A stretch of DNA of 18,811 bases, taken from Chlamydiota bacterium (GTDB lineage Bacteria > Chlamydiota > Chlamydiia > Chlamydiales > SM23-39). Each line of letters opens with the position of its first letter. The first letter of the stretch is position 1. Shown here piece after piece: positions 5 to 435 of this stretch. Made by a program: the position numbers and the translations under genes. The stretch covers positions 1 to 18,811 of the forward strand of contig JBEHXF010000040.1 of NCBI GenBank assembly GCA_048498835.1. Reading direction: 5' to 3'. Under the pieces are notes generated by a model, which saw only the letters and a program-made list of their open reading frames with translations, ran no database searches and was not told where the DNA came from.

Positions 5-435
5 TCCGCACGAAGCGTGCGGGCAGGATCGCCGCAAAAGCGGCGACAGGATAGCGGAGGGAAGCCCTCCGCACCTCCCCCAAAAGAGGAGCAGTTCCTT
101 TTTTGCTGCGCAAAAGCTCTCGGCAAAATCTGTTTCCTCCAAGCCATTCAAAAAATTCAAGATTCTCGCTGTGGCTTGAGGAAACAAATTTCGCCTGCGC
201 CTTGCCCTTCGGTCAAGTCGGAACTGCCCCCGCTTGAGCGTCAGCTCAAATCGCGAGGGAAATTTTTTTATCAAGCGCTACAGAAGACTCCCATTATTTT
301 ATCTCGCTTGGATAAAAAAATTTGCGTCGTGATGAGTTTTTGCGCAGCAAAAAGAAGGGGGCTCTCTTTGGGGTGCGGGGCTTCCCCGCATCCTGTCGCC
401 GCAAAAGCGGCGATCTTGCCCGGCGTTTCTCCGGA
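5..435. repeat. Large composite inverted-repeat element: two diverged multi-hairpin units arranged in inverted orientation (REP/REPIN- or MITE-like, or structured ncRNA)
   Basis: 20-119 is an imperfect reverse complement of 334-422. TCGCCGCAAAAGCGGCGA occurs at 29-46 and 396-413. Hairpins at 6-22, 54-72, 101-115, 122-195, 201-217, 234-249, 260-323, 337-353 and 374-390. May extend left of the window. Confidence 0.85.

Follow-up and report, generated by a model that had tools for sequence, protein, structure and literature searches.

Two long, imperfect stems near the start of an 18,811-nt stretch from a Chlamydiota bacterium (hereafter the window; start of contig C40 of source genome G000) each carry an extra base in one arm and enclose dissimilar loops. 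They raise the question of whether such structures are hairpins recognized by a protein or a constant scaffold that displays a variable, possibly guide-like loop, the two roles suggested in an earlier note on this sequence. Inspection of the sequence confirmed the arms and loops of both stems (A, 122-195; B, 260-323). The shared stem core with its fixed spacing occurs exactly twice in the window, at 138-179 (plus strand) and 271-312 (minus strand), and in 0 of 200 shuffles; the region 1-460 has a folding z-score of -12.4 to -14.5, as DNA or RNA and on either strand. The loops had been measured as 25 and 27 nt, a difference that arises because one more tip pair was counted in stem A; from core to core both are 29 nt long, as in all eight intact copies in the source genome. 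The extra base had been described as a conserved C. It does lie on the same side in both stems, but it is not an invariant C: among the eight G000 copies, the strand originally read has either C or T there, corresponding to G in three and A in five on the better-folding strand, and the base shifts by one position.

Each bulged stem forms the long arm of a predicted cloverleaf fold, and the two folds lie back to back (Table 1). Each unit, of ~137 nt, is predicted to form a four-way junction that consists of a terminal closing stem made by a short inverted repeat of the unit itself, the long arm, and two small hairpins that flank this arm, with the two units facing head to head, A on the minus and B on the plus strand. 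Units A and B are colinear homologs (78% mean column identity over 116 columns), and the stems covary, as had been proposed for their lower parts: 4 of 14 long-arm pairs differ on both sides between A and B. The outer arms include an inverted repeat pair (20-52 / 390-422); the left arm, which is cut off by the contig start, matches many dispersed loci. The neighboring genes are ordinary host genes in mixed orientation. A coding role was rejected, since the open reading frames across the element are interrupted by stops in sister copies (as judged by eye).

Table 1. Features of the twin unit in the window, and the GxxExxY genes of the source genome
Feature	Position	Strand	Remarks
Left outer arm	1..90		Short GC-hairpin mosaic built on tandem words, as in the arms around GxxExxY genes
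Unit A	91..227	-	Predicted four-way junction (MFE fold and topology test); 4 intact genome copies
Unit A closing stem	220-227 with 91-98	-	MFE fold
Unit A small hairpins	201-217 and 101-115	-	MFE fold
Stem A (unit A long arm)	122..195	-	Extra base at 139/140; two G.T pairs on the minus strand
Loop A	145..173	-	29 nt core to core; 8/27 inner columns vary among 4 copies
Unit B	226..362	+	Predicted four-way junction; 4 intact and several partial genome copies
Unit B closing stem	226-231 with 357-362	+	MFE fold
Unit B small hairpins	234-249 and 337-353	+	MFE fold
Stem B with lower extension	251..333 (260-323 in the earlier note)	+	Extra G at 310/311
Loop B	277..305	+	29 nt core to core; 13/27 inner columns vary among 4 copies
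Right outer arm	363..447		Extent from BLAST matches
GxxExxY genes in G000	C4:2465-2815, C60:8896-9246, C2:28368-28703		Loci L029-L031

The wider mosaic to which the element belongs is represented by 47 loci in G000, many of them truncated, deleted or reshuffled; among the 32 that are flanked by genes on both sides, 17 lie between convergent, 12 between tandem and 3 between divergent genes. Searches with exact patterns found nothing in 102 family genomes, and homologs were reached only through covariance models. The first model, built from eight G000 units, identified homologs in G045, G046, G102 and G105, and a second one, built from 16 homolog matches, led back to the same five genomes, G000 included, out of 103 in the family; these five represent three genera. 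No unit was detected in the five genomes of the source's own genus (0/5) or in a phylum sample (0/149), counts that do not establish absence because only the best 24-42 candidates per genome were scored and many assemblies are fragmented. The element is absent 3' of the same host gene in the readable same-genus genomes (5/5 for the SEC-C gene, 4/4 for rpiA); an empty site at the nucleotide level was not found in the relatives, owing to their different gene order. Target duplications amount to 0-2 nt in 12 of 13 rough automatic boundary calls and to 5 nt once, with uncertain boundaries. A first metagenome scan produced no matches and a second one 49 stretches, of which two are real, namely the new locus L156 and L180, the latter being the G045 element; the other 47, which have no lower stem or no 3' hairpin, were dropped. 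The L156 contig also carries a gene for a group II intron reverse transcriptase that ends about 400 bp from the element (this gene and the center between the two L156 units are at 157-1554 and 2154-2372).

Several further candidates were discarded. BLAST of 95-360 against 40 relatives gave two short matches in ordinary sequence, and the exact stem-B pattern gave a single isolated A/T-rich match in Bacteroidia among the species genomes; all were judged to be due to chance. Viral scans for the unit returned 0, 3, 0 and 1 stretches, none of them backed by folding or by the model, and weak model matches in G052, G056, G078, G096, G097, G223, G237 and G383 were dropped upon inspection. Pattern searches of 400 phylum or class genomes gave scattered single matches only, G046 excepted. 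A search of titles and abstract openings found no literature on the twin element or on repeats around GxxExxY genes. Taken as a repeat module with a strand-selective, predicted four-way fold, the twin unit of environmental chlamydiae is real and apparently undescribed.

The predicted fold is kept while the sequence diverges. A three-branch junction under the closing stem was predicted for all 12 representative units folded as DNA (z-scores from -6.3 to -14.0), compared with 0-3 of 60 shuffles per unit, and both this junction and the head-to-head pairing of A and B persist in four genomes, with mean column identity falling as low as 61%. The opposite strand adopts the same topology in 11 of the 12 representatives and is always less stable; the better-folding strand is the same in 26 of 26 units, also when folded as RNA. 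In a neutral alignment of the arms of these 26 units, which derive from about 11 lineages so that all counts over them overstate independence, G.T pairs outnumber A.C pairs 38 to 2, indicating that one strand is favored, with G.T pairs entirely absent from G000 unit B and from both G102 units. Extra bases are similarly skewed, with 31 on the 3' arm (A 17, G 12, T 2) vs 3 on the 5' arm. One or two of them are located within 10 positions of the core in 24 of the 26 units, from five genomes and one metagenome contig, with the exact position ambiguous inside A/T tracts (positions 5-8); the extra base is missing from two units and doubled in seven. Thus, of the expected invariance of the bulge, its side and approximate place hold, whereas its identity and exact number vary. 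The short forms of the long arm end in a GAA triloop with a C-G closing pair. A GAA triloop closed by C-G is an unusually stable DNA loop.

The loops behave differently. Across the four A and four B copies in G000, the mean pairwise difference is 0.17 for loop A and 0.26 for loop B, and 0.00 for the upper stem, so the loops vary more than the core, as the earlier note had anticipated. Its statement that the two loops lack obvious similarity is fair: the A-vs-B match is weak (9-13 of 27 positions, with shifts; p 0.03-0.72 over 16 pairs). Loop length is 29 nt in G000, 29/30 in G045, 30/31 in G105, 34/35 in G102 and 30 in L156; in G046, one unit has a loop of 32 nt and the other 10 of the 11 examined have loops of 3-5 nt. 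Within one genome the loops are related alleles. Most pairs between genomes are no closer than shuffles and a few are alike (p at most 0.02 among 55 pairs, uncorrected), one of them in opposite orientation, suggesting that the loop may flip. In one copy (C53), the loop of stem B is lost and the extra base retained. Across genera, the predicted fold and the extra base persist, whereas the loops change or disappear altogether, a pattern that points to a single-stranded DNA shape recognized by a protein rather than to a guide. The proposed protein-recognition hairpin gains indirect backing from the covarying stems, the favored strand and the extra base on one arm in nearly all units.

A candidate for such a protein emerges from the genomic context of the arms. 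All three GxxExxY genes (PF13366) in G000, one of which (C60) carries an internal stop, are surrounded by inverted repeats, the arm type differing from gene to gene, and inverted repeats frame 14 of 15 full-length GxxExxY genes in five genomes plus G000. The arms of the element are likewise inverted and built of tandem short words in common with those around PF13366 genes; such words occur just outside 24 of 25 units vs a 2% background, although they were picked after inspection of the data. Furthermore, the 27 nt of window positions 363-389 recur without a mismatch and with the same polarity in the arm next to the C60 GxxExxY gene, which places the twin unit where gene-bearing copies have the gene. 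At G046:C47, a unit lies directly next to the 3' arm of a GxxExxY gene. The association at the level of genomes is weak: PF13366 was matched in 5/5 carriers vs 49/103 genomes overall, 44 genomes have GxxExxY matches and no unit, and G102 contains GxxExxY fragments only. No solved structure was found for GxxExxY by sequence search; the predicted structure (pLDDT 95.7) adopts the PD-(D/E)XK fold. Its fold matches, namely Cas4-like SSO0001 (Z 8.3, rmsd 4.4, 100 aligned residues), the restriction enzyme BpuSI (8.1) and the Holliday junction resolvase Hjc (7.1), are effectively tied and hence name no substrate, and PF13366 is listed as a family of unknown function in the available part of PMC3424549. 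Y1 transposase, reverse transcriptase (PF00078), IS110 (PF02371) and integron integrase are all absent from G000 above the cut-offs.

In our preferred reading, to which we assign a probability of about 0.5, the twin unit is a gene-less, non-autonomous mobile repeat that is recognized by structure and rides on the arms of GxxExxY genes. We infer a mechanism in which a folded single strand would arise at the replication fork or from an extruded cruciform. A structure-specific protein would bind it and, by sensing both the junction and the bulge, distinguish one strand from the other. Nicks within the element or close to it, for which the GxxExxY nuclease working in trans is the most likely source, would be followed by host repair or template switching that copies and reshuffles the modules and spreads the repeat; the loop would serve as a length-limited spacer. 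GxxExxY genes are widespread, and if their products act on the arms, the element would make a particularly well-defined candidate substrate that brings its own controls, namely a favored strand, a conserved unpaired purine, a four-way junction, and natural long- and short-loop versions. The strand-selective recognition of folded single-stranded DNA that is known from integrons and HUH transposases would then extend to a restriction-like nuclease fold. Should the element prove to be merely a drifting repeat, it would still be an unlisted family in environmental chlamydiae that breaks assemblies; the window copy and many others are located at contig ends.

The latter possibility is the most resilient of the alternatives, even if we consider it unlikely. 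Under this scenario, hairpin modules accumulate inside one another between the nuclease arms, self-pairing and template switching keep the stems matched, the loops and the unpaired base drift, and the bulge is read by nothing. The abundance of broken, truncated and reshuffled copies, the insertion of other repeats into the small loops of the G046 units, the concentration of variation at unpaired positions and the range of the bulge number from 0 to 2 are all in line with such a history. However, self-correction would presumably act on both strands alike and remove bulges, which is at odds with the 38 to 2 excess of G.T over A.C and with an extra base that stays on one arm across three genera, and the persistence of the junction and of the head-to-head pair in four genomes despite the sequence divergence also speaks against this scenario.

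The G.T pairs and the folding bias are as compatible with RNA as they are with DNA. The fold could act in RNA, either as a read-through cloverleaf that sets the stability or processing of mRNA ends or as a small RNA. This is a slim prospect. Many mosaic loci do lie downstream of genes, the G.U wobble bias and RNA folding favor the same strand in every unit, and there is a precedent in transcripts containing Correia and ERIC elements, which are processed by RNase III and RNase E according to the available part of PMC10969869. Nevertheless, given that the two units face in opposite directions, a single transcript carries only one of them in the favored sense; furthermore, the C42 copy is situated between divergent genes, no Rfam family matches the element at the gathering score, and no promoter-like or terminator-like site was detected in positions 1-470.

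Another possibility, which appears slightly more doubtful still, is that A and B are the structured ends of an insertion element, such as a MITE mobilized by another transposase or recombinase, with the 0-210-nt center being a gene remnant or cargo and the GxxExxY arms a preferred landing site. The center indeed varies, from none in the window copy through about 20 nt in C13 and C52 and 5 or 35 nt in G046 (that is, none to about 40 nt) to about 208 bp in L156, where it separates two type-A units that are identical outside their loops, and the short inverted repeat that closes each unit would suit this interpretation. Yet the L156 insert matched no Pfam family in six frames, none of the 103 family genomes and no protein, and the two units were not seen to enclose a gene in any copy; nor do the carriers share a Y1 transposase, an IS110 transposase or an integron integrase, and the Y1 matches have no adjoining unit. 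On a comparably doubtful footing, the twin cloverleaf might be the substrate, or even a length-measured programmable scaffold, of a new mobile system based on PD-(D/E)XK rather than on HUH or tyrosine enzymes, in which an attC-like, strand-selective four-way junction of single-stranded DNA with genome-specific loops of 29-35 nt would offer a central slot for foreign DNA, as possibly occupied in L156.

The notion of a guide scaffold, in which a constant cloverleaf would present a programmable loop of 29-35 nt that guides the GxxExxY nuclease or some other protein to its targets, seems very unlikely. In its favor, the loop length is constant within a genome (29 in 8/8 G000 copies) and differs between genomes, the L156 twins differ solely in the loop, and the top fold matches include Cas4-like entries. 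Against it, the loops, as related alleles that in some cases are significantly alike across genomes, are not independent acquisitions, shrink to 3-5 nt in nearly all G046 units and are deleted in C53. The search for loop targets that the earlier note called for turned up nothing above chance, the best matches in the host genome equaling those of shuffled loops and the phage and plasmid collections yielding nothing significant. Of two viral scans with loop patterns, one found 0 matches and the other a single 22-nt exact match to a loop-B allele, in a contig with a serine-recombinase-like gene and no evident link to the host; a reversed-pattern control scan gave 0 matches. Although this match could be counted in favor of a guide, it is near the chance expectation for a 20-nt A/T-rich pattern by our own estimate, and we judged it to be probably due to chance. 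Chance also accounts, in our judgment, for 22 identical nt shared by the beginning of loop A and a coding sequence of a family member (L013, G008:C21:62798-62819).

Among known systems, the nearest layout, with a different enzyme, is that of TIRtrons as described in the available part of PMC3733652. Together with the REP, BIME and REPIN-RAYT systems (REPtrons), these share with the chlamydial element dispersed intergenic palindromes, mosaic clusters, head-to-head doublets, a bulged stem, and arms in common with a small nuclease gene (PMC8266576, PMC3733652, as far as the available text of these papers goes). By the same partial accounts, however, REPs are hairpins of 20-40 nt, compared with the ~137-nt four-way junction units described here, and REP-RAYT systems have a HUH gene between the arms, whereas the chlamydial arms frame a PD-(D/E)XK gene. 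The REP tetranucleotide, placed at the foot of the hairpin in these accounts, is absent in unit A, occurs once in unit B on the opposite strand, and is otherwise scattered. The Y1 family (PF01797) is missing from G000, G046 and G105 and present in G045 and G102, with no units in the flanks shown; none of the three Y1 matches in total has a unit beside it.

The resemblance to integron attC sites extends to a long hairpin with one or more extra bases in one arm, a variable tip, a G:T skew and a favored strand; in the accessible portion of PMC5027507, attC bottom strands are described as having the G:T skew, purine-rich unpaired parts and a GAA tip, the last of which recurs in the short chlamydial forms. 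The chlamydial units differ in being set in four-way junctions and inverted pairs, with no cassette array. The attC model invoked in the earlier note does not hold, given that core sites in the proper position and an integron integrase are both absent: the core and inverse core heptamers co-occur in 1 of 14 units (G045_A, anywhere in the unit) and neither is found in the units of the window, and TIGR02249 exceeded the cut-off in none of the five carriers, whose genomes are 78-97% complete. Bacterial MITEs such as ERIC, RPE and Correia are likewise ~140-nt non-coding structured repeats with short terminal inverted repeats, present in multiple copies whose number is patchy and lineage-specific (PMC10969869, available part). 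For the chlamydial units, the rough boundary calls showed no consistent target duplication, and no cognate transposase was found among the Y1 and IS110 families; they are nested in GxxExxY-type arms, the comparison with ERIC and RPE being one of described features. Chlamydiae are mentioned 0 times in the available part of the same review.

Other parallels are more remote. In IS608, of the IS200/IS605 family, the recognized hairpin contains an unpaired base, and in the IS110 bridge RNA two loops are displayed on a constant scaffold. IS200/IS605 ends, to which the earlier note had also likened the stems, are subterminal hairpins that flank tnpA/tnpB; here, no unit adjoins a Y1 match, and the lack of a Y1 transposase in the source genome speaks against that model. 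As for IS110, PF02371 is detected in one of the five carriers and not in G000, and the two chlamydial loops are on opposite strands and have no targets, with guide segments of ~9 nt falling below the resolution of the search. The element also differs from retron msr-msd, with PF00078 absent in G000 and the reverse transcriptase beside L156 being a group II intron protein. Identity with attC, IS200/IS605, REP or IS110 elements was therefore rejected, their defining features being absent.

The searches also brought to light other repeats and a gene next to the element. A different, abundant family of short palindromes (L069-L102 in G044, G113 and G046), which surfaced via the reversed control, has 24 matches in G044 and 11 in G113 and is inserted in small loops of G046 units (L118, L130). 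Other long MITE-like palindromes with variable central hairpins are present in G044 (L069, L070, L072), G226 (L043) and G003 (L235, after rpiA), with model scores of at most 20 bits; L043 and unit A share a subterminal motif, and a stem in L070 contains a single extra base in the mirror arrangement. At L222 (G046:C106), the loop of the small 5' hairpin in a type-A unit is split by yet another structured element. Two more types of tandem-word repeats, presumably known also from the flanks of other small genes, occur in the G000 mosaics (C8:24594-24759, C20, C9 and C34; C23:18220-18391 and C29:1200-1576). Finally, a gene at positions 828-2423 of the window (minus strand), which precedes the SEC-C gene, codes for a 531-aa protein with kinase-like motifs. 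Since the SEC-C gene directly follows the branched-chain amino acid transporter gene in three genomes of the same genus, the gene for the 531-aa protein looks like a lineage-specific addition.
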